Below are positions 752 through 60,247 of a DNA stretch of 60,663 nucleotides, one piece after another. Position 1 is the first letter of the stretch. Every line of letters starts with the position of its first letter. Below the pieces are notes generated by a model. That model saw only the letters and a list, made by a program, of their open reading frames with translations. It ran no database searches and had not been told where the DNA came from. Made by a program: the position numbers and the translations under genes. This DNA is from a bacterium (GTDB lineage: Bacteria > Patescibacteriota > Patescibacteriia > Patescibacteriales > VMTK01). The stretch spans positions 1 to 60,663 of the forward strand of contig JAUYAT010000008.1 in NCBI GenBank assembly GCA_030693295.1, given 5' to 3'.

Positions 752-789
752 GTCATTCCCAGCTTGACTGGGAATCCAGGAGTTAGCGG
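752..789. repeat. Solo arm of palindromic repeat family P1 (GTCATTCCC-loop-GGGAATCCAGGAGTTAGCGG)
   Basis: GTCATTCCCAGCTTGACTGGGAATCCAGGAGTTAGCGG is identical to 1877-1914. The internal stem is ATTCCCAG/CTGGGAAT. Confidence 0.8.
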
Positions 790-840
790 CATGAACAAGA
801 AAATAGATAAAAGTATTAAAAATATTAAACCTTTTATTAA

Positions 841-1857
841 TTATTCGCGTTTTTGCGGATCACTCCTGCCTGCCCCGCTGCGCGTTGCGCGGCCGGGGGA
901 TTCCCGCTTTCGCTCGCCTCGCTGAAGCTTTGGCGAAGCGGGCGGGAATGACAGAATTGAATTATTCAACAGTCTAAATACGATGTAAATAAAAATTACT
1001 ATTACTATTATTATACCCCAAACCAAGTATTTTTCATACCATCTCATCGGATATCTCGGCTCAACCACCGCCATTCTTTCATTGCCGGCTTTATCAATCG
1101 CTTTAACATAAACATAGCTCCGCAAATTCTGATCTTCCAATAAATACGGGCTTTCCGCCGCTTTCCACTTTTTCCAAATTCGCGCTCTTTTTTGCTCTTT
1201 TACTTCATAATGGCCTATCCCTGAGCCCTTATCCTGGGTCGCGAAAACCAAAAACCACTTGCCGCCGAACATAGATTCGTTTCGCGCGATTTCAGGCGCG
1301 AAAGATTCCGGCGGCTCATAATCCCGGGCCTTTATCTCAATGGATTCTTCCGGCGCCAAGTCCGCTTCCTTAATTTCAAACTCCAACGGCCGCGTTAAGA
1401 CATCAGCCGGAGTGCCAAGGCCGTCATTTTTCAACGCTCTTATTCCTGAAAACTCAATTTGTCCTTTATTTTTTTCTTTGGGCTCAAAAACCAAAGAAAA
1501 AACCAAACCGTTTTCGCTCTTGAAACCGCCCGGAGTAATCCCTGAAAAAATAATACTGCCGGCTGAATCGCTTCGCGGCCTTTCAACCCAAAAATTAACA
1601 ATAGAATTGCCGTCTTTTATTTCTTTTAATTCAAGAAGTTTTTCCGGAAACAAAATCTTGCCTTCAACCGCGTTAATGCTTTCCTCTTCGGTGTTAAGAA
1701 AAAAACTAACTTCAAACTTGCCGCCCATTTTGATTTCTTGAGCTTGAGAAGTTAAATTTAGTTGAGCTGCCCGTGTCGTTATGGGCAACACTAAACCAAC
1801 GCTAAACAAAACGCAAAACAGACACAAAACTTTTTTAATTTTTTCTTGCTGTATCAT
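841..1857 (-). CDS. Cohesin-domain surface protein with C-terminal TM helix; 3' end reads into repeats
   Basis: ORF-track 841..1881; the likely start is MIQQEKIKKVLCLF at 1857. LNLTSQAQEIKMGGKFEVSFFLNTEEESINAVEGKILFPEKLLELKEI is cohesin-like, and WGIIIVIVIFIYIV is a TM helix. The last ~40 codons (LLNNSILSFPPASPKLQRGERKRESPGRATRSGAGR) are encoded by repeat DNA. Confidence 0.7.
   Translation of the reverse strand: MIQQEKIKKVLCLFCVLFSVGLVLPITTRAAQLNLTSQAQEIKMGGKFEVSFFLNTEEESINAVEGKILFPEKLLELKEIKDGNSIVNFWVERPRSDSAGSIIFSGITPGGFKSENGLVFSLVFEPKEKNKGQIEFSGIRALKNDGLGTPADVLTRPLEFEIKEADLAPEESIEIKARDYEPPESFAPEIARNESMFGGKWFLVFATQDKGSGIGHYEVKEQKRARIWKKWKAAESPYLLEDQNLRSYVYVKAIDKAGNERMAVVEPRYPMRWYEKYLVWGIIIVIVIFIYIVFRLLNNSILSFPPASPKLQRGERKRESPGRATRSGAGRSDPQKRE
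867..970. repeat. GC-rich hairpin (family H) fused to a P1-family arm
   Basis: 867-898 TGCCTGCCCCGCTGCGCGTTGCGCGGCCGGGG is the reverse complement of the hairpin seen in tsaD, valS and the methyltransferase. 898-970 GGATTCCCGCTTTCGCTCGCCTCGCTGAAGCTTTGGCGAAGCGGGCGGGAATGACAGAATTGAATTATTCAAC recurs in inverted orientation at 4029-4088 (the ACAGAATTGAATTATTCAAC tail recurs at 4147-4166) and directly at 52805-52862. Confidence 0.8.
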
Positions 1858-1876
1858 AAAATATTCTCTTCCCCTT

Positions 1877-2319
1877 GTCATTCCCAGCTTGACTGGGAAT
1901 CCAGGAGTTAGCGGTACTTATGTCATATCCAGAAATAAATCTCGCCAAGCAGGATTTTCCTTTTCTATTAATTCTATTTTCCATTGCCGATTCCACTTTT
2001 TCAACTGTTTTTCTCTTTGGATAGCATATTGAATATAACCATAACTTTCATAATACACTAATCTGGTTACATTATATTTTGCTGTAAAACTCTTTGGATT
2101 CTCTTTTAATTTATGTTGAAAACTGCGGCTAAATAAATTATTAGTAACTCCGATGTAGATTGTCCCATTTCTTTTACTGGCCATAATATACACATAATAA
2201 CATTTTTCTTGTTTCATATTAATTTCTTACTATAATAATTATTTTAAAATCCACATTCATACCGCTTCCTCCTGGATTCCCCACCCGCTTTCGCGAGTGC
2301 TAAAGGCCGCGGGAATGAC
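1877..2319. mobile_element. GIY-YIG gene enclosed by inverted P1-family arms (candidate autonomous palindromic element)
   Basis: The left arm ends GGGAATCCAGGAGTTAGCGGTA (to 1916). The right arm starts TACCGCTTCCTCCTGGATTCCC (from 2260). That is a 22-nt inverted repeat with 2 mismatches. The outer ends are GTCATTCCC (1877) and GGGAATGAC (2319). The same two arms abut without an ORF at 4029-4166. Confidence 0.5.
1918..2217 (-). CDS. GIY-YIG nuclease family protein (small UPF0213/YhbQ-like)
   Basis: 99 aa. N-terminal YYVYIMASKRNGTIYIGVTNNL (GIY...YIG motifs), then REKQLKKWNR. Confidence 0.75.
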   Translation of the reverse strand: MKQEKCYYVYIMASKRNGTIYIGVTNNLFSRSFQHKLKENPKSFTAKYNVTRLVYYESYGYIQYAIQREKQLKKWNRQWKIELIEKENPAWRDLFLDMT

Positions 2320-4028: not shown

Positions 4029-4166
4029 GTCATTCCCGCCCGCTTCGCCAAAGCTTCAGCGAGGCGAGCGAAAGCGGGAATCCAGGAGTTAGCGCACAGA
4101 ATCTGGATTCCCCACCCGCTTTCGCGAGTGCTAAAGGCCGGGAATGACAGAATTGAATTATTCAAC
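4029..4166. repeat. Composite P1-family palindromic element without an ORF
   Basis: GTCATTCCCGCCCGCTTCGCCAAAGCTTCAGCGAGGCGAGCGAAAGCGGGAATCCAGGAGTTAGCG-CACAGAAT-CTGGATTCCCCACCCGCTTTCGCGAGTGCTAAAGGCCGGGAATGACAGAATTGAATTATTCAAC. The two arms that flank the GIY-YIG gene at 1877-2319 are separated here by only 8 nt. Confidence 0.8.
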
Positions 4167-11343: not shown

Positions 11344-14112
11344 TTACGGTAAAATCAACTGCCCTTTTAATTTCGCGAGCTCCTCTTGCCATAATTTCAG
11401 CTTGTCTTTTTCTTGCTTTACAATCCGCGCCGGCGCTTTTTTAATAAACTCTTTATCGGCTAATTTTTTTTCAGTATTAACAATTAATTTTTCTAAATTC
11501 TCACGTTCTTTTTTTATTCTAATTTTTTCTTTTTCTTCATCAACGGCGCCGATTAGATAAATTTCAATATCGGCAACAGCAATATAAATAGCGTCTTTAT
11601 GAACAGGACATTGTCCTGTTCCTACAATATTTAATTCCTTAATTCCTGTTCGCAGATTTTTAATTAAATGCTCCTGGGATTTGATTAATTTAGCATTCTT
11701 TCCTCCGTAAATTACCGCCTTGATTTTCCGCGCCGGCTCAATTTTGTTTTCCGCCCGCGCGTTGCGGATGGCGATGATAATATTTTTAATCAACTCAAAA
11801 TTACCTGAGGGCTTGCCCGCCGTAGCCTTGGCGAAGGCGGGCCATTTTTCAACCATTAATAAACTATCCTTATCCATCTCGCGCCATATCGCTTCCGTCA
11901 CGAACGGCATAAACGGATGCCAAAGCTTTAACAAGTTTTCCAAAACCATTAATAACACTTGCTGTTTCGCTTCGCTTTTTTCAAACTTGCTCGCTTCCAA
12001 ATGCCAATCAGCAAAATCGCTCCAGGTAAATTCCCGCAATTTTTCTCCGGCCTGCGAAAACCTGTAATTACCCAAATCTTCCGAAACATCTTTTATTAAA
12101 TTTTGCAATTTCTCCAATATCCACTCATCGGCAAGCGTTAAATTTTGAATTTTGAATTGCAACTTTGAACTTTGCCTGCCCCGCTGTGCGTTGCGCGGCC
12201 GGGGAACTTTGAACTTTGAACTTTGTAAAACATATCGCGCGATATTCCAAAGCTTATTGGTAAAATTCCTGAAGCCGGCTATTTTTTCCTCGCTTAACCG
12301 CAAATCATTTCCCGGAGTATTTCCGATTACCAAAGACAAGCGAACGGCATCCGTGCCGAATTTCTCAATCACATCAAGCGGATCAATGCCGTTGCCTTTT
12401 GACTTGCTCATTTTCTTGCCATACTTGTCCAAAACCATTCCGTGCAAATAAACATTTTCAAAAGGTATTTCCCGCAAAGCGAATAAAGACATCATTATCA
12501 TGCGCGAAACCCAGAGCGTAAGAATCTCATACCCCGTTTCCAAAACTTGCGTTGGATAAAAACGCGCCAAATCCCCTGACTTTTTTCCATTTTTAAATGT
12601 ATCCGGCCAGCCCAATGTGGAAAAAGTCCACATCCCGGAAGAAAACCAAGTGTCTAATGTATCTTCATCCTGCGCCCACCCTTCTCCTTCCGGCGGTTCA
12701 ACGCCCACATAAATTTCCTGATTTTCTAAATTATTTATTTTATCTTCAACTTTTAACTTTTCACTTTTAACTTTTAACTTATTTCTGTACCATACCGGTA
12801 TCCGATGCCCGAACCAAATCTGCCTGCTAATACACCAATCATGCAAATTTTCCATCCAGTCCAAATATCTTTTTTCAAACTTTTCCGGAATAAATTTAAT
12901 TTCTTTGTTTTTAGCCGCTTCAATCGCTTTTTCTTTTAATGATTTTCCGTTAAACCGCTTTAATTTTTTATTAACATTTACAAACCACTGTTTTGACGGC
13001 AACGGCTCTATGGGAGTATTGCACCTGTAGCAAACAGACAAATTATTTTCTATCTCTTCCTCTTTTTCCAGCAGATTATTTTTTCTTAATTTTTCAATAA
13101 TCATATCCCGCGCTTGTTCAACCGTCTTGCCTGAATATTCTAAAAAATTATTGTTAATTTTTCCATCCTCGCCGATAACTTTTATAATTTCCAAATCATT
13201 CGCTTCCGCCATCTGCCAGTCAGCCATAGAATGCGCCGGAGTAACGCCCAATGCGCCTGTTCCAAAATCCATTTCAACATGCCGATCCGCTATAATTTTC
13301 AGTTTTAATTTTATCCCGACAAAATCCACTTCATAAATCTTGCCAATATATTTTTTGTATCTTTTGTCTTTTGGATTAACCGCCACTGCCGTATCGCCAA
13401 GCTTGGTTTCCGGCCGCGTTGTGGCGATAGCGAAAGGAAAATCATAGCTATATTTGAAAGTGTATAATTTCGCTTTTTGATCCTTGTATTCCACTTCGTC
13501 GTCAGCCAATGTTGAATGGCATCGCGGGCACCAATTAACAACTCGCTCTCCCCTATAAATTACTCCTGCTTCATACATATCAACAAACATTTTTTTAACC
13601 GCTTTTTCTCTTGGCTCATCCAATGTAAACGCTTCGCGCGACCAATCCAAAGAAGCTCCCATTTTTCTTGTTTGGCGCAAAATAATGGATTGCGTCTCTT
13701 TTAAAAATTCCCAAACTCGCTCAAGAAATTTTTCCCTGCCTAAATCATGCCGTGTTTTACCTTCTTCTTTTAATAATTTTTTTTCAACAACATTCTGCGT
13801 GGCAATAGCCGCGTGGTCCGTTCCGGGAAGCCAAAGCGCGCGATATCCTTTCATCCTGTGATAGCGAATCAACAAATCTTCTATGGCAAGCATTGAAGAA
13901 TGCCCCAGATGCAATTTGTCGGTAATGTTTGGCGGCGGTAAAACAATAGTATAGCTTGGCGCGTTTTCAGGCAAATCCAAATTATCCGGATTAAAAAAAC
14001 CGGATTTCTCCCACTTTTTATATATACCATCCTCATATTGAGATGGATCGTACGCTTTTGGCAATTCTTGCTTCATATTTACAACATTACCAAAATTAGC
14101 CATATTTGACAA
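11344..14112 (-). CDS. valS: Valine--tRNA ligase
   Basis: 922 aa with PPPNITDKLHLGHS (HIGH-type) and KMSKSKGN motifs and a C-terminal coiled coil. An alternative start, MKQELPKAYDP, is at 14076. Contains repeat insertions (see repeats). Confidence 0.9.
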   Translation of the reverse strand: MSNMANFGNVVNMKQELPKAYDPSQYEDGIYKKWEKSGFFNPDNLDLPENAPSYTIVLPPPNITDKLHLGHSSMLAIEDLLIRYHRMKGYRALWLPGTDHAAIATQNVVEKKLLKEEGKTRHDLGREKFLERVWEFLKETQSIILRQTRKMGASLDWSREAFTLDEPREKAVKKMFVDMYEAGVIYRGERVVNWCPRCHSTLADDEVEYKDQKAKLYTFKYSYDFPFAIATTRPETKLGDTAVAVNPKDKRYKKYIGKIYEVDFVGIKLKLKIIADRHVEMDFGTGALGVTPAHSMADWQMAEANDLEIIKVIGEDGKINNNFLEYSGKTVEQARDMIIEKLRKNNLLEKEEEIENNLSVCYRCNTPIEPLPSKQWFVNVNKKLKRFNGKSLKEKAIEAAKNKEIKFIPEKFEKRYLDWMENLHDWCISRQIWFGHRIPVWYRNKLKVKSEKLKVEDKINNLENQEIYVGVEPPEGEGWAQDEDTLDTWFSSGMWTFSTLGWPDTFKNGKKSGDLARFYPTQVLETGYEILTLWVSRMIMMSLFALREIPFENVYLHGMVLDKYGKKMSKSKGNGIDPLDVIEKFGTDAVRLSLVIGNTPGNDLRLSEEKIAGFRNFTNKLWNIARYVLQSSKFKVPRPRNAQRGRQSSKLQFKIQNLTLADEWILEKLQNLIKDVSEDLGNYRFSQAGEKLREFTWSDFADWHLEASKFEKSEAKQQVLLMVLENLLKLWHPFMPFVTEAIWREMDKDSLLMVEKWPAFAKATAGKPSGNFELIKNIIIAIRNARAENKIEPARKIKAVIYGGKNAKLIKSQEHLIKNLRTGIKELNIVGTGQCPVHKDAIYIAVADIEIYLIGAVDEEKEKIRIKKERENLEKLIVNTEKKLADKEFIKKAPARIVKQEKDKLKLWQEELAKLKGQLILP
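11815..11842. repeat. GC-rich hairpin inside valS (GCCCGCC-N14-GGCGGGC)
   Basis: GCCCGCCGTAGCCTTGGCGAAGGCGGGC encodes ...AFAKATAGKP.... A related, longer copy lies in the endoQ-like gene at 22084-22173. Confidence 0.7.
12141..12226. repeat. Family H hairpin with heptamer flanks inside valS
   Basis: (AATTTTG)2..(AACTTTG)2-CCTGCCCCGCTGTGCGTTGCGCGGCCGGGG-(AACTTTG)3, with the core at 12173-12204. Translated as KFKVPRPRNAQRGRQSSKLQFKIQN. Confidence 0.85.
12748..12782. repeat. Heptamer tandem array (AACTTTT x5) inside valS
   Basis: AACTTTTAACTTTTCACTTTTAACTTTTAACTTAT, translated as KLKVKSEKLKVED. Confidence 0.85.
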
Positions 14113-25587: not shown

Positions 25588-25704
25588 GTTCTGGCGATGG
25601 CCTACTCTCCCGGGGCTTATGCCCAAGTACCATCGGCGCTGAAGGGCTTAACTTCTGAGTTCGGGATGGGATCAGGTGTTGCCCCTTCGCTAAAACCACC
25701 AGAA
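25588..25704 (-). rRNA. rrf: 5S rRNA
   Basis: The reverse complement contains CCUGAUCCCAUCCCGAACUCAGAAGUUAAGCCC...GCGCCGAUGGUACU...GGGAGAGUAGG. Flanked by the complementary AAAAAACACCATTG / CAATGGTGTTTTTT. Confidence 0.9.
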
Positions 25705-26036: not shown

Positions 26037-26768
26037 ACTTGTTGCCAAGTGTATGGACTATACCATCACCCCGGTTGTACCGGGGGGTCGACGTGTTAGC
26101 GCTCCAATTATACTGGAACACTCTCTCCATTTAAGGATCAGTCTCTACGGGGTTAAATTATGTCTTTTACGCTTCTTTGAATAATTCAATTCTCTAAATT
26201 TATCTATTAACTCTGCCAATTTATTAAAATCTTCTCTGCTTTTCACTCTATTTTTCTGGTTTAATATTTTTATCATTAAACCGGCCTGTTCTTTCTTTAA
26301 GATTAAATATGGCTTTATTAATTTCAAGAATTTTATTATTTCATCTCTTCTATTAATGGTATATTCTAATATACCATCATTTCTTTCACGTATATAACCG
26401 CAATCTATTAAAGAGCAAATTTTCTTAAAATTCTCAGATTCTTTTTTGGATTGGAAAAGTATAATATAAGGCGATACCTGAAATCCATACTTGTAAGTAG
26501 GATTTGGTTTCAGTCTTACGTAAATACTTCCGTCGCCATCAAGAAATCCGGCCAAATACGCTCTTTTTGTTGTGGTTATAAGTTTAGACATAATCAACTT
26601 CCCTCGGTATTATCCTAACATATGACAGGTTGAAATGCAAATTTATATGATAGGACTTCACCGATATGAGTCGACTTTTTCAATCCCGCATTACTGCGGG
26701 ATGCCGCCGTTATTGATGTCTCCTCGGGTTCAGATGGTTCAAGAGCCGAATAAAAAATCAGCTTCTGA
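26037..26768 (-). mobile_element. Group I-type intron in 23S rRNA at the I-CreI (L2593-equivalent) site
   Basis: The exon sequence GGGTTCAGACCGT (ending at the complement of 26769) resumes as CGTAAGACAGGTCGGTCTCC (complement of 26036 downward). The joined exons match the conserved GGGTTyAGAACGT|CGTGAGACAGTTCGG block. The 5' exon ends in U and the intron ends in G. Confidence 0.6.
26145..26597 (-). CDS. LAGLIDADG homing endonuclease, single-motif I-CreI family
   Basis: 150 aa. YLAGFLDGDGSIYVRLKPNPTYKY...GYIRERNDG...FLKLIKPYLILKKEQAGLMIKIL parallels I-CreI (YLAGFVDGDGSIIAQIKPNQSYKF...GYVRDRGS...FLTQLQPFLKLKQKQANLVLKII, from memory). Confidence 0.85.
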   Translation of the reverse strand: MIMSKLITTTKRAYLAGFLDGDGSIYVRLKPNPTYKYGFQVSPYIILFQSKKESENFKKICSLIDCGYIRERNDGILEYTINRRDEIIKFLKLIKPYLILKKEQAGLMIKILNQKNRVKSREDFNKLAELIDKFRELNYSKKRKRHNLTP

Positions 26769-26791
26769 ACGGTCTGAACCCAGCTCGCGTG

Positions 26792-26831
<40 letters not shown>

Positions 26832-26835
26832 TCAC

Positions 26836-26868
<33 letters not shown>

Positions 26869-27394
26869 GAACCACGCCGTCGCTGTGGACGCTCGGGCGT
26901 GACTAGCCTGTTATCCCCGGAGTAGCTTTTATCCGATGAGCTTCCGCCGTCCTATATCGCACGGTCGGATCACTAAGTTCCGCTTTCGCGACTGCTCGAC
27001 TAGTAGGTCTTGCAGTAAAGCTGGCTTATGCCTTTACGCTATCTTCCGGATTTCCATCCCGGAATAGCCAACCTTTGTAAACGCCTCCGTTACCTTTTGG
27101 GAGGCATCCGCCCCAGACAAACTACCCACCAGACACTGTCCTCCCGCCTGATTCAAGGCTGGGAGTTAGAATTAAAAGCATACAAGGGTGGTATCTCACT
27201 GTTGAGCCGGTAAACCGGCTCTCCCACCTATGCTGAACATGCATACCCCTAATCCAATGTCAAGCTATAGTAAAGCTTCACGGGGTCTTTTCGTCCAACT
27301 ATGGTTAACGAGCATCTTTACTCGTCCTGCAATTTCGCCGAGTCCTTCGTTGAGACAGTACCCAAGTTGTTAAGCCATTCGTGCAGGTCGGAAG

Positions 27395-27443
<49 letters not shown>

Positions 27444-28176
27444 GCGTTCATCCGCGCTTCGGTTCAAAGCTTCGCCCCGCATTGCTGCGGGACTAACCTC
27501 TCCCCTTAACGTTCGGACACTGGCCAGGCATCGCCCCCTATACATCCTCTTACGAGTTAGCAGGGAGCTGTGTTTTTGATAAACAGTCACTTGAGTTCTT
27601 TAGCTGCGGCCCCGGTAAACCGGGGCAGGCCTTATCTCGAAATTACGGCCGCTGTTTTGCCGAGTTCCTTAACGAAGGTTCTCTCGTACACCTGAGGCTT
27701 CTCGCCTCGCTCACCTGTGTCGGTTTGCGGTACGGTTATTATCGCGTTAGCCCTAGAGGTTTTTCTGGGCAATCTATCAGCTTGAATTGGCTCCGCCGAA
27801 GCTTTGCCTTTTGACAGCCTTGTTTGATTGGTGATCCGGATTTGCCTGAATCATCAAACTTGGCAATCAACGCTCATACCATAAAAACGCTCAAACCTTT
27901 AAATTGCGTCCCCCCATCGGAACACAATAATAGTGCTGGAATATTAACCAGCTCATCCATCGACTACCCGCGCATTACACACGGCTCGCCTTAGGACCGA
28001 CTAACCCTGGGTTGATTTTCATTGCCCAGGAAACCTTAAGCTTTCGGTGAGCCGGTTTCTTACCGGCTTTAATGCTACTCATGCCAACATTCTCTCTTCT
28101 GTCCGCTCCACCATGCCTCGCGACACAGCTTCAACGCCGGACAAAATGCTCCTCTACCACGCCGCTGCTCCGCATT

Positions 28177-28268
28177 GGCACGCTGATGGCACGCTGATGG
28201 CACGCTGACAAAACACTGAAAATAATCAGCGTAAAATCCGCGTTGTAATCGGCGTAAAATCCGCGTGT
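28177..28268. repeat. Tandem-repeat-containing expansion segment inside 23S rRNA
   Basis: GGCACGCTGAT x3 (28177-28208) and ATC(A/G)GCGTAAAATCCGCGT(T)GT(A/C) x2 (28225-28268). The two repeat types are partly complementary (ACGCTGAT/ATCAGCGT). Confidence 0.75.
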
Positions 28269-29720
28269 CAATGCGAAGCAACGACATCCGCATCTTCGGT
28301 AATATGCTTAGCCCCGATAAATTTTCAGCGCGCGGCAACTTGACTAGTGAGCTATTACGCTTTCTTTAAAGGATGGCTGCTTCTAAGCCAACCTCCTAGT
28401 TGTCGCAGTCGCGACACCACTTTTTACACTTAGCATATATTTAGGGACCTTAGATTGCGATTAGGGCTGTTTCCCTTTTGACTGATGGAGCTTAGCCCCC
28501 ATAGTCTGACTCCCGAGCTATAGGCCTAGGTATTCGGAGTTTGGTTGAAGACGGTATCTTGCGACCCGCCCTCATTCAGTGCTCTACCCCCTAGGTTAAA
28601 CGCTCGAGGCTAGCCCAAAAGCTATTTCGAGGAGAACCAGCTATTGCCGAGTTCGATTGGAATTTCTCCGCTAACCACAGCTCATCCCCTAGTGTTGTAC
28701 GACTAGTGGGTTCGGTCCTCCCTCCGATTTTCATCGGAGTTCAACCTGGCCATGGCTAGATCACCCGGCTTCGGGTCTTGTCCATGCGACCGATCGGAAT
28801 TCAGAAATCGTTCCGCGATATGCGGGACGAAATCAGAAATCCGATATACGGGCTATTAACCCTCGCTTTCACTATGGCTCCACTCCAAACGGAGATTAGC
28901 CAAGCCACATAGAACAAACTCGTTGGCTCATTCTTCAATAGGCACGCTGTCACCCCGGTAAACCGAGGCTCCAGCTCCTTGTAAGTATATGGTTTCAGGT
29001 ACTATTTCACCTCCCTCACCGGGATGCTTTTCACCTTTCCCTCACGGTACTTGTTCGCTATCGATCTTAAGAAGTATTTAGTCTTAGGTCATAGTCGACC
29101 TGGATTCCCGCGGGATTTCTCGTGTCCCGCGGTACTTAAGATATGTTGCAGTAAAGCTATAACCCCTTTCACTTACAGGGCTATCACCTGCTCTGGCGGA
29201 GCTTTCCAGCTCGCTTCAATTAGGGAAAGTTATAATTTGTATCTTTACCTTTCTTTGTCTAGGAAGAAAACGCAACTATCTTGCAACTCCAATAAAACAT
29301 ATGGTCCTAGAACCTTCTGACCCAGATAGCAAAAAGCTAACTGAATCGCAGTTTTACGGGTTTAGACTCCTCCCCTTTCGCTCGCCACTACTCAGGGAAT
29401 AAATATTTTTCTCTTTTCCTCCGGCTACTAAGATGTTTCAGTTCGCCGGGTTGTCCACTCACTGTCCTATGTGTTCAGACAGCGGTCGTCCCGACTTCAT
29501 CGGGACGGGTTTCCCCATTCGGAAATCCTCGGGTCAAAGGTTGCTTGCCACCTCGCCGAGGCTTATCGCAGGCTGCTGCGTCCTTCATCGTCTTCTTAAG
29601 TCAGGGCATCCACCATATACTCTTAATGAGATTTTCCCACACTTTTGATTTCAAAAGTGTTTATCTTATTTTGCCAATTGCAAAAGCAAAATAAAATTTT
29701 ATTTAATCTGATTTATTCAA

Positions 29721-40680: not shown

Positions 40681-41841
40681 ATGATTATTTTAGGCATAGA
40701 AACAAGCTGTGATGAAACCGCGGCGGCAATAGCGCGCGGGCAAGGAGATAAAATTGAAATTTTATCCAATGTTGTTTCATCGCAAATTGAAATACATAAA
40801 AAATACGGCGGCGTGGTGCCGGAGGTGGCGGCGCGCGAGCACGTATTAAACATCCTGCCTGTTGTTAACGAGGCGTTGGAAAAAGCGGGAATAAAAAGAG
40901 GAAATGCCGGAAAAAAAATTAACGCCATCGCGGTTACCGTCGGGCCGGGGCTTATTACTTCTTTAATTGTCGGTGTTGAAACCGCTAAAGTTTTGTCGTA
41001 TGTTTGGAATGTTCCGGTTATTGGCGTTAATCATATAGAAGGACACATCTACGCCAATTGGCTGAGGCCAATTGGCGCAAATTACAAATTACCCCGGCCG
41101 CGCACCGCGCAGCGGGGCAGGCAAATTACAAATTACAAAAAAATTCCAAATTCCAAATTCCAAATTCCAAAAATTAATTTCCCGGCTGTGGTTTTAACTG
41201 TATCCGGCGGGCATACGATGCTGGTGCTAATGGAGGGCCATGGCAAATATAAAATTATCGGCGAAACCAGGGACGACGCGGCCGGCGAAGCGTTTGACAA
41301 AGCGGCGAAACTGCTTAAACTTGGTTATCCTGGGGGGCCTGAAATTGCTAAATACGCGGAAAATTTTTTAAATCAAAAATCAAAAATATCTTTGCCTCGC
41401 CCGATGATTTATTCCAAGGATTATGATTTTTCTTTTTCCGGACTGAAGACTGCTTTATTATATGAAATAAGAAAAGATAAAGATTATAAATCGCGAATTT
41501 CCGAATACTGTTATGAATTTCAGCAAGCTGTGATTGATGTTTTAATTCATAAGACGGTTAAAGCCGCCGAAGAGTACGGGGTTAAAACCATTATGTTAGC
41601 GGGCGGGGTGGCGGCTAACAAAGAACTGCGAAGCCAACTTAAACAAGCCGTAAAAAAATCTGTTCCATGTTCCCCCGGCCGCGCACCGCGCAGCGGGGCA
41701 GGCATGTTTTATGTTCCACGGTTAGAATACACGACTGACAACGCGGCCATGGTGGCGGCCGCCGGTTATTACAAAGCGCTCAAGAATAATTTTACGCCGT
41801 GGCGAAAATTAAAAGTTGACGCGAATTTGGAACTTAAATAA
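40681..41841 (+). CDS. tsaD: tRNA N6-adenosine threonylcarbamoyltransferase TsaD
   Basis: 386 aa: MIILGIETSCDETAAAI, GVNHIEGHIYAN, SGGHTMLV, DNAAMVAAAG. Two family-H insertions. Confidence 0.9.
   Translation: MIILGIETSCDETAAAIARGQGDKIEILSNVVSSQIEIHKKYGGVVPEVAAREHVLNILPVVNEALEKAGIKRGNAGKKINAIAVTVGPGLITSLIVGVETAKVLSYVWNVPVIGVNHIEGHIYANWLRPIGANYKLPRPRTAQRGRQITNYKKIPNSKFQIPKINFPAVVLTVSGGHTMLVLMEGHGKYKIIGETRDDAAGEAFDKAAKLLKLGYPGGPEIAKYAENFLNQKSKISLPRPMIYSKDYDFSFSGLKTALLYEIRKDKDYKSRISEYCYEFQQAVIDVLIHKTVKAAEEYGVKTIMLAGGVAANKELRSQLKQAVKKSVPCSPGRAPRSGAGMFYVPRLEYTTDNAAMVAAAGYYKALKNNFTPWRKLKVDANLELK
41078..41175. repeat. Family H hairpin with heptamer flanks inside tsaD (copy 1)
   Basis: (CAAATTA)2-CCCCGGCCGCGCACCGCGCAGCGGGGCAGG-(CAAATTA)2-CAAAAAAATTC-(CAAATTC)3, with the core at 41092-41123. 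Translated as ANYKLPRPRTAQRGRQITNYKKIPNSKFQIPK. Confidence 0.9.
41661..41718. repeat. Family H hairpin inside tsaD (copy 2)
   Basis: TGTTCCATGTTC-CCCCGGCCGCGCACCGCGCAGCGGGGCAGGCA-TGTTTTATGTTCCA, with the core at 41673-41704. Translated as VPCSPGRAPRSGAGMFYVP. Confidence 0.9.
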
Positions 41842-44585: not shown

Positions 44586-44690
44586 AAAAAAGGTCTCCCG
44601 TCGGCGGTAACCCTTTCGGATCACCCGATGCCCTTTCGGGCAAAGACCACTTGCATAGCGCCGATCAGAAGACCGTCTCTATGCAAGTGG
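44586..44690 (-). promoter_or_regulatory. Structured 5' leader (attenuator or riboswitch-like) ending in a U6 tract
   Basis: Minus-strand RNA: a 12-bp hairpin CCACUUGCAUAG-N20-CUAUGCAAGUGG, then GGUCU-[GCCC GAAA GGGC]-[UCGG GUGAUCC GAAA GGGUUAC CG CCGA]-CGGG-AGACC-UUUUUU. The first hairpin's loop contains a second GGUCU. Confidence 0.4.
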
Positions 44691-44724
44691 ATTTTCAACC
44701 ATGCCTTAAACAAGGGTTAGGTTT

Positions 44725-50965: not shown

Positions 50966-52660
50966 ATGCAAAAAGCAATAAGAGAGCTGTTAAAATTAAA
51001 CATAAAATCCCGCGATGATTTAATGATGGCTAAACGAAAAATCGCCAAGAAATATAATATTGGAATTTTGCGGAATTCGGATATTTTAAAGGAATATAAT
51101 AAATTAATCGCCGTAGGGGCATTGCGCGCAATGCCCCTACTTGAAAAAATCTTGCGCAAGCGCGCGGTCCGGACAATGTCGGGCATCGCGCCGGTTGCGG
51201 TTTTAACCGCGGCTTATCCCTGCCCGGGCAAGTGCGCTTACTGCCCGACCGAAAAAAATGTGCCGCAAAGCTATCTGTCAAACGAGCCGGCTGTTATGCG
51301 CGCCATTCGCTGCGATTATAATCCTTACTTGCAGACACAAATGCGTTTAAGCGCTTTGGAAGCAAATGGCCATAAACCGGAAAAAATTGAATTGATTGTT
51401 ATCGGAGGAACATGGAGCGTTTTGCCGGAGAAGTATAAATATTGGTTTATAGCACAGTGTTTTAAAGCGGCAAATGATTTTCGCTCTGTCATTCTGAGGG
51501 CGCAGCCCGAAGAATCTCAGGTTAATCAATACAAAACACTTAATATGGTAAATACTAAATCTATATTAACTAACCAGAGATCCTTCGCTGCGCTCAGGAT
51601 GACAACATTAATAAAAGAACAGAGAAAAAATGAGAAGGCTAAATATAAAATTATCGGGCTTACTCTTGAAACAAGGCCGGATTATATTAATGAAGAAGAA
51701 TTATTGCAAATGCGGGAGCTGGGGTGCACAAGAGTTGAGCTCGGCGTACAAGCGATTGACGATAAAATATTAAAACTAAACAAGCGCGGCCATGGCGTTG
51801 ATGAAATCGCGCGCGCCACCGAGTTGCTAAAAAATTACGGCTTTAAAGTTACTTATCATATAATGCCGGGACTGCCCGGAGCAACGCCGGCCAAAGATTT
51901 AAAAATGTTTAAACAGCTTTTTAGCGATGAGCGATTCCAGCCGGACCAGATAAAATTTTACCCCACGGTAGTTACGCGCGGCAGTTTGTTATACAAATGG
52001 TGGAAAGCGGGAAAATACAAGCCCTATGGCGATAAGCCGTTGCGCGAATTAATTATTGGCTGCAAAAAAGTGGTGCCGCCGTATGTTCGTATTATAAGAT
52101 TAATACGGGATATTCCAAGAGAATCAATTGTCGCCGGCAATATGATTACCAATCTGCGTCAGGTGATGAAAGACGCGGGAGCGGAATGCAGGTGCATTCG
52201 CTGTCGTGAATGCAGGAACGAGGCATTGCCTCGTTCAGTTCGTCCAATATTACGAATTATTAAATATAAAGCGTCAGGAGGGGAAGAATATTTTATCAGT
52301 TTTGAAAGCAAGGATGGAAAAATTCTTTATGGGTTTTGCAGATTAAGGACACAAAACATGGAACACAAAACATGGAACAAGCTTAATTTTTTTAATAACA
52401 CAGCGTTGATTAGGGAATTGCATGTTTATGGCGAGTTGGTGCCGGTCGGTGAAAATAAAAAAATTCAACACTCCGGATTGGGCAAAAAATTAATGGCCGA
52501 GGCGGAAAAAATCGCGCGCGAGAACGGATATAAAAAAATAGCCGTGATATCAGGCATCGGCGCGAGAGATTATTACAGAAAATTGGGATACAGGTTAAAA
52601 GAAAGCTATATGATTAAAGCGGACGCGACGCAACAGCGGCGCGTACGCGATCGCGATTAG
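50966..52660 (+). CDS. Elp3-like radical-SAM/GNAT tRNA modification enzyme
   Basis: Likely start MQKAIRELLKLN at 50966. Radical-SAM CPGKCAYCP, and C-terminal GNAT RELHVYG...QHSGLGKKLM. Several repeat insertions. Confidence 0.8.
   Translation: MQKAIRELLKLNIKSRDDLMMAKRKIAKKYNIGILRNSDILKEYNKLIAVGALRAMPLLEKILRKRAVRTMSGIAPVAVLTAAYPCPGKCAYCPTEKNVPQSYLSNEPAVMRAIRCDYNPYLQTQMRLSALEANGHKPEKIELIVIGGTWSVLPEKYKYWFIAQCFKAANDFRSVILRAQPEESQVNQYKTLNMVNTKSILTNQRSFAALRMTTLIKEQRKNEKAKYKIIGLTLETRPDYINEEELLQMRELGCTRVELGVQAIDDKILKLNKRGHGVDEIARATELLKNYGFKVTYHIMPGLPGATPAKDLKMFKQLFSDERFQPDQIKFYPTVVTRGSLLYKWWKAGKYKPYGDKPLRELIIGCKKVVPPYVRIIRLIRDIPRESIVAGNMITNLRQVMKDAGAECRCIRCRECRNEALPRSVRPILRIIKYKASGGEEYFISFESKDGKILYGFCRLRTQNMEHKTWNKLNFFNNTALIRELHVYGELVPVGENKKIQHSGLGKKLMAEAEKIARENGYKKIAVISGIGARDYYRKLGYRLKESYMIKADATQQRRVRDRD
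51113..51140. repeat. Perfect 28-nt palindrome inside the Elp3-like gene
   Basis: GTAGGGGCATTGCG/CGCAATGCCCCTAC, translated as VGALRAMPLL. Confidence 0.9.
51488..51603. repeat. Palindromic element (GTCATTCTGAGGGCG...CGCTCAGGATGAC) inside the Elp3-like gene
   Basis: The terminal inverted repeats enclose an AT-rich centre. Translated as SVILRAQPEESQVNQYKTLNMVNTKSILTNQRSFAALRMTT. Confidence 0.8.
52216..52236. repeat. 21-nt hairpin inside the Elp3-like gene
   Basis: GAACGAGGCA-T-TGCCTCGTTC, translated as NEALPRS. Confidence 0.8.
52349..52376. repeat. 14-nt tandem duplication inside the Elp3-like gene
   Basis: ACACAAAACATGGA x2, translated as TQNMEHKTWN. Confidence 0.85.
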
Positions 52661-52690
52661 TTTTTCAGATCGTCCGAAAACTATCTCCTT

Positions 52691-52862
52691 GTCATTCCCA
52701 ACTTGATTGGGAATCCAGGCGAGAGCCATAGGAATATGTTTATTAGTTAAAGGTAAGTGAAAATTGATAATTTTAATCTGCTATATATATTTTTGCCATT
52801 CACCCCTGGATTCCCGCTTTCGCTCGCCTCGCTGAAGCTTCGGCGAAGCGGGCGGGAATGAC
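52691..52862. repeat. P1-family palindromic element with a 85-nt AT-rich centre
   Basis: The left arm GTCATTCCCAACTTGATTGGGAATCCAGG ends at 52719. The right arm CCTGGATTCCCGCTTTCGCTCGCCTCGCTGAAGCTTCGGCGAAGCGGGCGGGAATGAC starts at 52805. Confidence 0.8.
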
Positions 52863-52987
52863 AAGAAGGCGTTAAAAATGTATATTTTTCGGACGGTCTG
52901 GCCATCGGCTGGCGCGCAAATCCTTGACAAAGCAGAGGCTAATTGTTAAAATGAAAACATAATTTTTTATAAAAAAGGGAGGAAATT

Positions 52988-59446: not shown

Positions 59447-60247
59447 ATGGATAAACAAACTCAAAAAAAATTATTGGAGATAGTGAAGCGCAATTACGAA
59501 GAGATTGCCGAGGATTTTAGCGAAACCAGAAAAAAGCATTTATGGCCGGAGCTGTTGCAATTAACTCAGGACATAAAAAACGGCGATAAAATTTTAGATG
59601 TTGGCTGCGGCAGCGGCAGACTGTTAGAAGTTTTTAAAGATAGGGATATCAAATATATCGGTATTGACAGTAGTGAAAAGCTGATTGATATAGCTCAAAA
59701 ATCAAAAATCCCCGGCCACGCAGCGCGCAGCGGGGCAGGCAAAAATCAAAAATCAAAATTTATTATCTGCGATATTTTGGAATTAAGCAAAATTCCGGAG
59801 ATTAGTTTTGATTATGTATTCTCCGTCGCGGTTTTGCATCATCTGCCAGGGGAAGACTTGCGCGTCGCGGCTTTAAAACAGCTCAAAAATAAAATTAAGC
59901 CTGAGGGTAAAATCATTATAACGGTCTGGAATTTATGGAGCCAGAAAAAATTCAGAAAAATTATCATTAGAACAGAGCTGTTAAAATTGTTTAATAAATT
60001 AAAACTAATGTTCCGCCGAAAGCGCTCCGGAAAAAGCCAAATTGCCGAATGCCGAGCGCTTAGTATTTCCGGCGATTTCGGCGATATTATATTTGACTGG
60101 AAAAACAGCAAAGGCGAAAAAACGAGCCGGCGCTATTATCACGCGTTTAGAAAAAGGGAGCTGAAAAAAATAACAAAAAAGGCGGGATTGCGAATTGAAA
60201 AAATATATAATGACAAATTTAATTATTACGCAATTTTAAAAAAATGA
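59447..60247 (+). CDS. Class I SAM-dependent methyltransferase (Trm9-like by weak resemblance)
   Basis: ILDVGCGSGR motif. The ORF-track start at 59438 is a GTG; the first ATG is at 59447. Contains a family-H insertion. Confidence 0.7.
   Translation: MDKQTQKKLLEIVKRNYEEIAEDFSETRKKHLWPELLQLTQDIKNGDKILDVGCGSGRLLEVFKDRDIKYIGIDSSEKLIDIAQKSKIPGHAARSGAGKNQKSKFIICDILELSKIPEISFDYVFSVAVLHHLPGEDLRVAALKQLKNKIKPEGKIIITVWNLWSQKKFRKIIIRTELLKLFNKLKLMFRRKRSGKSQIAECRALSISGDFGDIIFDWKNSKGEKTSRRYYHAFRKRELKKITKKAGLRIEKIYNDKFNYYAILKK
59696..59760. repeat. Family H hairpin with heptamer flanks inside the methyltransferase gene
   Basis: (CAAAAAT)2-CCCCGGCCACGCAGCGCGCAGCGGGGCAGG-(CAAAAAT)2-CAAAATT, with the core at 59710-59741. 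Translated as QKSKIPGHAARSGAGKNQKSKF. Confidence 0.9.

Follow-up and report, generated by a model that had tools for sequence, protein, structure and literature searches.

A small GIY-YIG nuclease gene between inverted hairpin repeats: a likely Ssn/SRM-type locus in a probable candidate-phyla bacterium

The gene-bearing element and its ORF-less counterparts

The DNA analyzed here, hereafter the window, is a stretch of 60,663 nt that carries, near its left end, a minus-strand gene for a 99-aa single-domain GIY-YIG nuclease. The gene lies within a 443-nt element bounded by two inverted hairpin arms, and three further elements of the same build contain no open reading frame (ORF). The elements are numbered E1 to E4. 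The names ssnA and SRM (Ssn-related motif) are those of a published system, to which, as argued below, the locus very probably belongs. The features are as follows.

752..952, no strand assigned: E1, ORF-less SRM-like pair, composed of arm A (752-789), an AT-rich core, a GC hairpin (867-898) and arm B (898-952)
953..970, plus strand: flank AGAATTGAATTATTCAAC lying outside GGGAATGAC, common to E1 and E3, with a second copy at 4149-4166
1877..2319, minus strand: E2, predicted complete SRM-ssnA-SRM element of 443 nt, with two inverted hairpin arms and GTC ends outward
1877..1916, plus strand: arm A of E2, SRM/NTS-like hairpin, GTC-ATTCCCAG-CTTGA-CTGGGAAT-CC followed by the inner extension AGGAGTTAGCGGTA
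1918..2217, minus strand: putative ssnA, single-domain GIY-YIG nuclease of 99 aa, from a Pfam PF01541 match and homology to Neisseria gonorrhoeae
2218..2259, minus strand: AT-rich stretch upstream of ssnA within E2, presumed promoter/RBS region as read from the sequence
2260..2319, minus strand: arm C of E2, SRM/NTS-like hairpin with enlarged loop, GTCATTCCCGCG-[insert]-AAAGCGGGTGGGGAATCC followed by the inner extension AGGAGGAAGCGGTA
4029..4148, no strand assigned: E3, ORF-less SRM-like pair, composed of arm B (4029-4094), an 8-nt spacer and arm C (4103-4148)
52691..52862, no strand assigned: E4, ORF-less SRM-like pair, composed of an arm A variant and arm B around about 85 nt of AT-rich DNA

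The first-pass annotation had placed a 99-aa GIY-YIG gene between palindromic arms, and this arrangement was confirmed. The ORF at 1918-2217 matches the Pfam GIY-YIG family (PF01541, E=2.3e-15) and sits between GGGAATCCAGGAGTTAGCGGTA (1895-1916) and TACCGCTTCCTCCTGGATTCCC (2260-2281). The outer termini of the element, GTCATTCCC at 1877 and GGGAATGAC at 2311-2319, are also those that had been given, and arms of the form GTCATTCCC-loop-GGGAATCC stand on either side of the gene at 1877 (plus strand) and 2319 (minus strand). A single copy of ssnA is present in the window. The promoter/RBS role of the stretch at 2218-2259 is presumed, the evidence being one weak promoter-like match at 2222-2194.

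The repeats are far too frequent for chance. On both strands of the whole window, GTCATTCCC occurs eight times vs 0.25 expected, and none of 100 shuffled sequences reached eight copies; GGGAATCCAGGAG, with up to two mismatches allowed, occurs eight times vs 0.86 expected. The eight GTCATTCCC sites pair into four elements of the form GTCATTCCC...GGGAATGAC, one with the gene and three ORF-less; each of the latter three likewise consists of two arms in inverted orientation. Every arm is a hairpin of the form GTC-ATTCCC-loop-GGGAAT-CC. All eight fit GTCATTCCC-N(8-37)-GGGAATCC and retain the palindrome ATTCCC/GGGAAT together with GTC on its 5' side and C on its 3' side.

The same two arms had been thought to recur at every copy. 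Instead, the arms comprise three hairpin modules that are differently combined: module A is short with an 8-bp stem (copies at 752, 1877 and 52691), module B is long, with a structured insert of 38 nt, and module C has an insert of 28-30 nt. The combinations are A/B in E1, A/C in E2, B/C in E3 and A/B in E4. Elements as much as 52 kb from each other share perfectly identical stretches of 38-56 nt. For instance, arm C of E3 and arm C of E2 are identical at 38 of 38 nt. In arm A of E4 (52691), the stem shows a compensatory change from AG/CT to AA/TT. When folded as ssDNA, arm A of E2 forms an 8-bp stem at -7.3 kcal/mol (z = -2.3). For the arm A copies at 1877 and 52691 and for arm B of E3 (4029), z lies between -2.3 and -3.1, and for arm C of E3 it is -2.4. 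By itself, the arm C copy in E2 folds weakly (z = -0.3), no better than shuffled sequence.

Two of the ORF-less copies were found as first described, namely the copy at 4029-4148 with its arms 8 nt apart and the copy at 52691-52862 enclosing 85 nt of AT-rich DNA. The supposed solo arms at 752-789 and 898-970, in turn, proved to be the two ends of a fourth complete element, E1 (752-952). As a whole, E3 folds at -36.5 kcal/mol (z = -7.3), and judged from its sequence it looks like the gene-bearing element with the interior deleted. The flank AGAATTGAATTATTCAAC is shared by E1 and E3, indicating that the duplicated unit in these two reaches 18 nt past the arm. E1 also encloses a GC-rich hairpin (867-898) unrelated to the arms. 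A second, GC-rich repeat family was not seen in any of the 105 loci retrieved from other sequences.

E1 to E3 sit among genes for secreted or surface proteins with cohesin, dockerin/Big_6 and DUF7483 domains, and E4 has an ELP3-like radical-SAM/GNAT gene on one side and a NUDIX gene on the other. NTS repeats are known to cluster near surface-protein genes in Neisseria (PMC11893778), of which the position of E1 to E3 may be an echo, an anecdotal one with three elements. No Rfam family covers the repeats. Two ideas about the ends of the elements, a promoter function and a fixed position next to an RBS, were considered and dropped. One weak promoter-like match employs the arm terminus, and the count of promoter-like matches (11 vs 6.4 +/- 2.3 expected) was not significant. 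The GTC end of the element abuts the RBS of the downstream gene at 752, 1877 and 4029, and the element at 52691 lies instead 3' of a plus-strand gene.

The encoded nuclease and the published Ssn/NTS system

The first-pass annotation knew of no described palindromic repeat system associated with a GIY-YIG enzyme. Such a system, named Ssn/NTS (SRM), has already been described (Chenal et al., 2025, Nat Commun 16:2388, March 2025; PMC11893778). The NTS (Neisseria Transformation Sequence), CGTCATTCCCGCGMAVGCGGGAATCYRG, extends the dRS3 palindrome ATTCCC-N8-GGGAAT into a longer, oriented motif, and the NTS-like SRM flank homologs of ssnA, a 94-aa single-domain GIY-YIG gene; at least one SRM lies near 71% of ssnA homologs, and 42% have SRM on both sides (PMC11893778). 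The ssnA family corresponds to CDD cd10448 (PMC11893778). In CDD, cd10448 is named GIY-YIG_unchar_3, and UPF0213/YhbQ is cd10456. SsnA binds the hairpin in ssDNA only and cuts site-specifically a few nucleotides 5' of it, without cleavage of the complementary strand, duplex DNA or RNA (PMC11893778). The nucleotide triplet that precedes the palindrome is important for cleavage, the C directly following the palindrome has the greatest weight for binding, and mutation of Y6, Y17 or E64 in the N. meningitidis (Nm) enzyme abolished cleavage (PMC11893778). Strand-specific ssDNA cleavage has been shown for the homologs from N. meningitidis, N. elongata, N. wadsworthii and Wolbachia, and SsnA of N. 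meningitidis limits transformation by NTS-containing DNA (PMC11893778). Candidate phyla are not mentioned in the text of that paper.

The window protein resembles this family in several respects. PF01541 covers residues 6-81 and is the only Pfam match, with no additional DNA-binding domain; no NCBIfam family scored above its cut-off, the group I intron endonuclease model TIGR01453 reached 16 bits vs a cut-off of 56, and a sequence search of the PDB returned no relative. A tblastn search of PLSDB identified a locus (L004) on an N. gonorrhoeae chromosome, mislabelled there as a plasmid (E=5e-26), which served as the Neisseria reference. Its ORF (L004:1525-1809) encodes 94 aa, the same length as Nm SsnA, lies amid canonical NTS repeats, gene-less inverted pairs included, and was taken as the ortholog of the characterized N. 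meningitidis enzyme. By BLASTP the window protein is 56% identical to this ORF with E=8e-37, which lies below the published working threshold for an SsnA homolog (E<1e-10; PMC11893778). Identity to a sequence taken as that of Escherichia coli YhbQ is 24% (5e-7). Nm Y6, Y17 and E64 have Y10, Y21 and E69 as their counterparts in the window protein, so the catalytic Tyr, Tyr and Glu are kept; an alignment of eight sequences shows no variation at these three positions or at R31 and H35. The closest named homologs of the window protein belong to the Patescibacteria group.

The repeats agree with the Ssn family in the core GTCATTCCC...GGGAATCC and in their layout, NTS-gene-NTS plus gene-less copies elsewhere in the genome. 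The elements retained in all eight arms, that is GTC, palindrome and 3' C, are the positions found critical for cleavage or binding (PMC11893778), which supports the Ssn assignment. Nevertheless, the published degenerate SRM pattern, HGTCWYN(0-2)YYVSBRHN(0-5)WNVSBRGN(0-2)RNCYNB, has no match in the window (none of the eight arms), and neither does the strict NTS pattern. Arm A is missed by the SRM pattern because of A/T in the inner stem where G/C is demanded, and arms B and C because 28-38 nt lie in the loop, beyond the allowed length. The SRM pattern is a search tool and not a biochemical definition. Both it and the NTS pattern gave way to a generic detector, which asks for GTC, a first stem strand of 6 nt, a loop of 3-60 nt, the complementary strand of the stem and then C, and which has a background of about 0.14-0.2 matches per kb. 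Besides the pattern, the locus differs from the described family in its host, a probable Patescibacteria/CPR metagenome-assembled genome (MAG), a group not discussed in the text of Chenal et al., and in that the gene-less copies of the window are, without exception, inverted pairs. Taken together, these comparisons make it very probable that the locus belongs to the Ssn/SRM (NTS-like) system, with the 99-aa protein as an SsnA-type enzyme and the arms as its cognate motifs.

The nuclease-hairpin association in other genomes

In a scan of one genome per GTDB species, 80 ssnA loci with 55-83% protein identity were collected from Patescibacteria, Flavobacterium, Pirellulales, Omnitrophota, Dadabacteria, Leptospirales, Bdellovibrionales and others. 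The enrichment of arms at small GIY-YIG genes that had been proposed for statistical testing is borne out by these loci, with hairpins 30-75x denser near ssnA. Up to 250 bp from ssnA, the density of the generic hairpin is 4.20/kb, compared with 0.140/kb elsewhere (30x), and that of the published SRM pattern is 2.70/kb, compared with 0.036/kb (75x). At least one hairpin lies near the gene in 66 of the 80 loci, so that the opposite case, in which most paralogs lack arms, was not found, and hairpins flank the gene on both sides in 48 of 80. The two-sided arrangement is present in six of the eight loci labelled Patescibacteria, the remaining two being near contig ends. Arms face GTC-outward in 138 cases and inward in 44. 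Around 42 gene copies of other genomes, the innermost outward-facing pair spans a median of 399.5 nt (range 345-694), compared with 443 nt in E2. Gene-less SRM-like sites in the flanks of these genomes comprise 8 convergent pairs, 4 divergent pairs and 23 solo sites. The pairing of gene and hairpin is thus real and non-random.

The likeness to REP/RAYT suggested by the first-pass annotation is a fair one, since the gene-hairpin link is specific and recurrent and ORF-less pairs are found here and in other genomes. The same analogy had already been published: in the Discussion of Chenal et al., NTS-ssnA-NTS is likened to an insertion sequence, to IS200/IS605 and to REP/RAYT (PMC11893778).

The nearest relative found is a Logan contig (L001, from SRR22387763), in which SsnA is 90% identical and the same downstream gene is present. 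Where E2 has its arm C, L001 carries GTCATTCCCGCGAAAGCGGGAATCCAGG, which matches the NTS consensus base for base, and arm C of E2 can therefore be read as this sequence plus an insertion of about 19 nt. E1 has no counterpart in the orthologous L001 locus, where the two flanking genes overlap, and the junctions there have diverged too far for an empty site to be delimited. Searches for close strains by exact protein gave either no match or a contig of the same strain (L105, from SRR13727537) that breaks within arm B of E4. A metagenome scan with the gene at 841-1857 yielded only relatives at 43-55% identity, none of which contained SRMs; one had a partial GIY-YIG gene upstream. No empty/occupied allele pair was found among the relatives compared.

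Predicted action and possible mobility

By analogy with the Neisseria and Wolbachia enzymes, each arm would fold into a hairpin when the DNA becomes single-stranded during uptake, replication or repair, and the window SsnA would bind this hairpin in a sequence- and strand-dependent manner. It would then hydrolyse the same strand a few nucleotides 5' of GTC in arms A, B and C, and is expected not to act on duplex DNA, RNA or the complementary strand. The arms of an element stand in inverted orientation, with GTC outermost; each strand should therefore carry a single cleavable site, and the geometry predicts a cut just outside the element. The three ORF-less pairs would be further cognate sites of SsnA, comparable to the dRS3/NTS pairs of Neisseria intergenic mosaic elements (NIME), and at least one of them, E3 (4029-4148), resembles a gene-bearing element that has lost its interior. 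As in the characterized systems, the enzyme probably cuts SRM-bearing ssDNA and could so modulate recombination or incoming DNA. The gene-plus-arms cassette may act as a unit that is copied or exchanged via its arms.

Whether such a cassette also moves on its own account has to be weighed against other readings. Under one of them, the gene and its inverted arms form an autonomous, IS-like mobile element, in which SsnA is the sole enzyme and spreads the repeats, and the ORF-less pairs are MITE-like non-autonomous derivatives. This was raised, only as a hypothesis, by Chenal et al. (PMC11893778), and we regard it as possible but rather unlikely. It would account for an architecture of about 400 bp, resembling terminal inverted repeats, that is conserved in many phyla, and for within-contig duplicates: two copies on one Dadabacteria contig (L055) share 93.8% identity over 404 nt, with similarity confined to the arm-bounded unit and ending approximately at the arms, and others are 84.6% (L073, 403 nt) and 78% identical. 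The apparent internal deletion in E3, the presence of E1 in the window and its absence from the 90%-related L001, and the different neighbor genes of 85%-identical SsnA homologs point the same way. So does the lack of phylum signal, with SsnA identity of 60.7% within Patescibacteria vs 61.1% between Patescibacteria and other phyla (77.7% within Flavobacterium), a comparison biased by the selection of the 80 loci for their resemblance to the query. On the other side, we know of no strand-transfer step or covalent intermediate for GIY-YIG enzymes, which are hydrolytic nucleases, and with one cleavable arm per strand, as the geometry implies, excision of the IS200/IS605 type, by two cuts on one strand, is not predicted. 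Neither target-site duplications nor flanking direct repeats were detected in 42 elements, the window holds one ssnA copy only, and the E1 polymorphism lacks clean boundaries. Among 50,697 phage records there were no matches, IMG/VR held only GIY-YIG relatives at 28-34% identity to SsnA, and the 33 'plasmid' matches were mostly very large replicons or mislabelled chromosomes, 32 of them typed as non-mobilizable. The arm-bounded copies, the one presence/absence difference and the missing phylum signal are no more than suggestive of a nuclease that spreads the repeats. The fuller proposal, a cassette of about 400 bp that is driven by a hydrolytic ssDNA-hairpin nuclease, has ORF-less miniatures and moves as an autonomous element between phyla, candidate-phyla bacteria included, likewise seems to us possible but rather unlikely.

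The different combination of modules A, B and C across the four elements could also be the work of a homing-like cassette, in which breaks made by SsnA at SRM hairpins stimulate SRM-homologous repair, copying ssnA or cores into existing pairs and shuffling the modules. We consider this improbable, and give an equally slender chance to its corollary that the repeats are landing pads and not cargo. The perfect identities of 38-56 nt between distant elements, the 18-nt flank shared by E1 and E3 past the arm and the existence of ORF-less pairs with the same arms would suit it, and the Neisseria enzyme alters recombination outcomes near NTS (PMC11893778). Set against this are the failure to find an empty/occupied allele pair and the lack of any phage or intron context; moreover, classical GIY-YIG homing enzymes have a separate DNA-binding domain and cut duplex DNA, neither of which applies here. 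Finally, the association might be a coincidence, the hairpins being ordinary terminators or regulatory palindromes, or the protein a housekeeping nuclease of the YhbQ/UPF0213 type. The elements are intergenic, three of them lie within a surface-protein gene cluster, and the weak promoter-like match at an arm terminus would fit a regulatory role. Such a coincidence is nonetheless scarcely credible given the 30-75x hairpin enrichment in 80 unrelated genomes with conserved orientation, arms that have no T-tract and are not detected by a terminator scan, and an identity to YhbQ (24%) far below that to the Neisseria SsnA ortholog (56%).

With the locus read as an Ssn/SRM system, its relation to other repeat-associated enzymes can be outlined. 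The dRS3/NIME repeats of Neisseria have the same ATTCCC-N-GGGAAT palindrome, form inverted pairs around short variable cores (seen in N. gonorrhoeae L004) and likewise cluster near surface-protein genes, but their loops and cores differ, the organism is unrelated, and they number hundreds per Neisseria genome compared with four elements in 60 kb here. REP/BIME with RAYT (TnpA-REP) also couples a single-copy gene to flanking inverted copies of a genome-scattered hairpin repeat, and its enzyme recognizes the hairpin in ssDNA, as is predicted by analogy for the window enzyme. That enzyme, however, is an HUH Y1 protein with a covalent tyrosine intermediate, whereas the window protein is by Pfam a GIY-YIG hydrolase and not HUH/Y1_Tnp, and Ssn has no known strand-transfer activity. 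IS200/IS605 elements share a small enzyme, subterminal hairpins read as ssDNA and cleavage away from the hairpin, the latter two being expected here by analogy; their ends are not inverted repeats and both cuts fall on one strand, whereas the window arms are inverted with, by the published specificity, one cleavable arm per strand. GIY-YIG homing endonucleases (I-TevI, Seg) have the catalytic domain and, perhaps, a selfish-gene-like behavior in common with the present system, but they carry an added DNA-binding domain, cut duplex DNA and live in phages or introns, in contrast to the single-domain enzyme of the window, for which no relatives were found in the 50,697 phage records.

The new points are modest: a probable Ssn instance in a likely candidate-phyla bacterium, arm variants that escape the published pattern, gene-less copies that in the window are all inverted pairs, and one presence/absence difference between close relatives. 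As the pattern misses all eight window arms, the diversity of SRM, long-loop variants in particular, and their counts are probably underestimated. Small genes annotated as 'GIY-YIG nuclease family protein' and ATTCCC/GGGAAT hairpins are common in MAGs of candidate phyla, and the names SsnA and cognate motif could be applied to them. Bacteria of this group have small genomes and probably rely on taking up DNA. They are a natural place to ask whether Ssn is a general restriction system for ssDNA, and the arm-bounded duplicates and the E1 polymorphism are concrete starting points on the mobility of the cassette. In annotation, the hairpins also yield junk peptide tails such as SFP...RKRES, read through E1 in the ORF at 841-1881, a read-through of the gene at 841-1857 to which E1 provides the last ~30 codons.

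SRM pairs and their flanks in the window

The ORF-less inverted pair of Ssn-related motif (SRM) arms at 752-952 (E1) is read through by the last ~30 codons of a secreted-protein ORF (841-1881, minus strand), whose C-terminal end corresponds to window positions 841-952. The resulting E1-derived tail of the protein reads ...SILSFPPASPKLQRGERKRESPGRATRSGAGR.... The ortholog of this ORF on the Logan contig L001, which carries the orthologous locus (SsnA 90% identical), encodes 308 aa, is without E1 and overlaps the next gene, encoding a cohesin protein. Besides, E1 and the second ORF-less pair, E3, have 18 nt (AGAATTGAATTATTCAAC; 953-970 next to E1 and 4149-4166 next to E3) in common directly outside GGGAATGAC, indicating that the duplicated unit was longer than the arm in these two copies. 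The third such pair, E4 (52691-52862), is itself enclosed by a further inverted repeat, CAGAYCGTCCGAAAA (~52646-52675 and ~52885-52900); an older palindrome located 3' of a radical-SAM/GNAT gene may have received the SRM pair in its loop.

SRM arms in relatives and assemblies

In the locus L002 (2815-3350), where the SsnA homolog is 85% identical, the SRM stem occurs as the variant ATTCCT/AGGAAT, in which the two sides have changed in a compensatory manner. Immediately upstream of ssnA, this locus has an SRM pair without an ORF, which results in a nested, NIME-like array, and the genes neighboring this array differ. L001 and L105, the latter from the window's own strain, are independent short-read contigs of this lineage, and each begins, at its position 1, either precisely at an SRM arm or within one. 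SRM arms therefore break assemblies, so that counts of SRM and ssnA from such MAGs will be too low.

Two records of N. gonorrhoeae, the species that provided the reference SsnA ortholog, are listed as plasmids in PLSDB (NZ_CP119140.1 and NZ_CP119142.1, 2.17 Mb); these are evidently chromosomes.

A GC-rich hairpin family

A 32-nt GC-rich hairpin, TGCCTGCCCCGCTGCGCG-NN-GCGCGGCCGGGG, constitutes a separate repeat family unrelated to the SRM arms and has five copies in the window:

867-898, GC-rich hairpin, in E1
12173-12204, GC-rich hairpin
41092-41123, GC-rich hairpin
41673-41704, GC-rich hairpin
59710-59741, GC-rich hairpin

Four of these five sit mid-way within a short AT-rich tandem repeat, and hence the same short motif is present on either side of the hairpin, the tandem unit varying by copy (AACTTTG, TAATTTG, GAACAT.., ATTTTTG). 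The remaining copy, that in E1, adjoins the inner end of arm B, the long hairpin module of the SRM. The family was found in none of the 105 loci fetched for comparison.

RNA genes

No 16S rRNA gene was found across the whole 60-kb window, in which two other rRNA genes and an Rfam match are located:

25589-25703, minus strand, 5S rRNA
26717-29631, minus strand, 23S rRNA
44606-44723, minus strand, match to the Rfam family LOOT RNA (RF03000; bit score 72.6, gathering score 46.4, E=9.5e-12)
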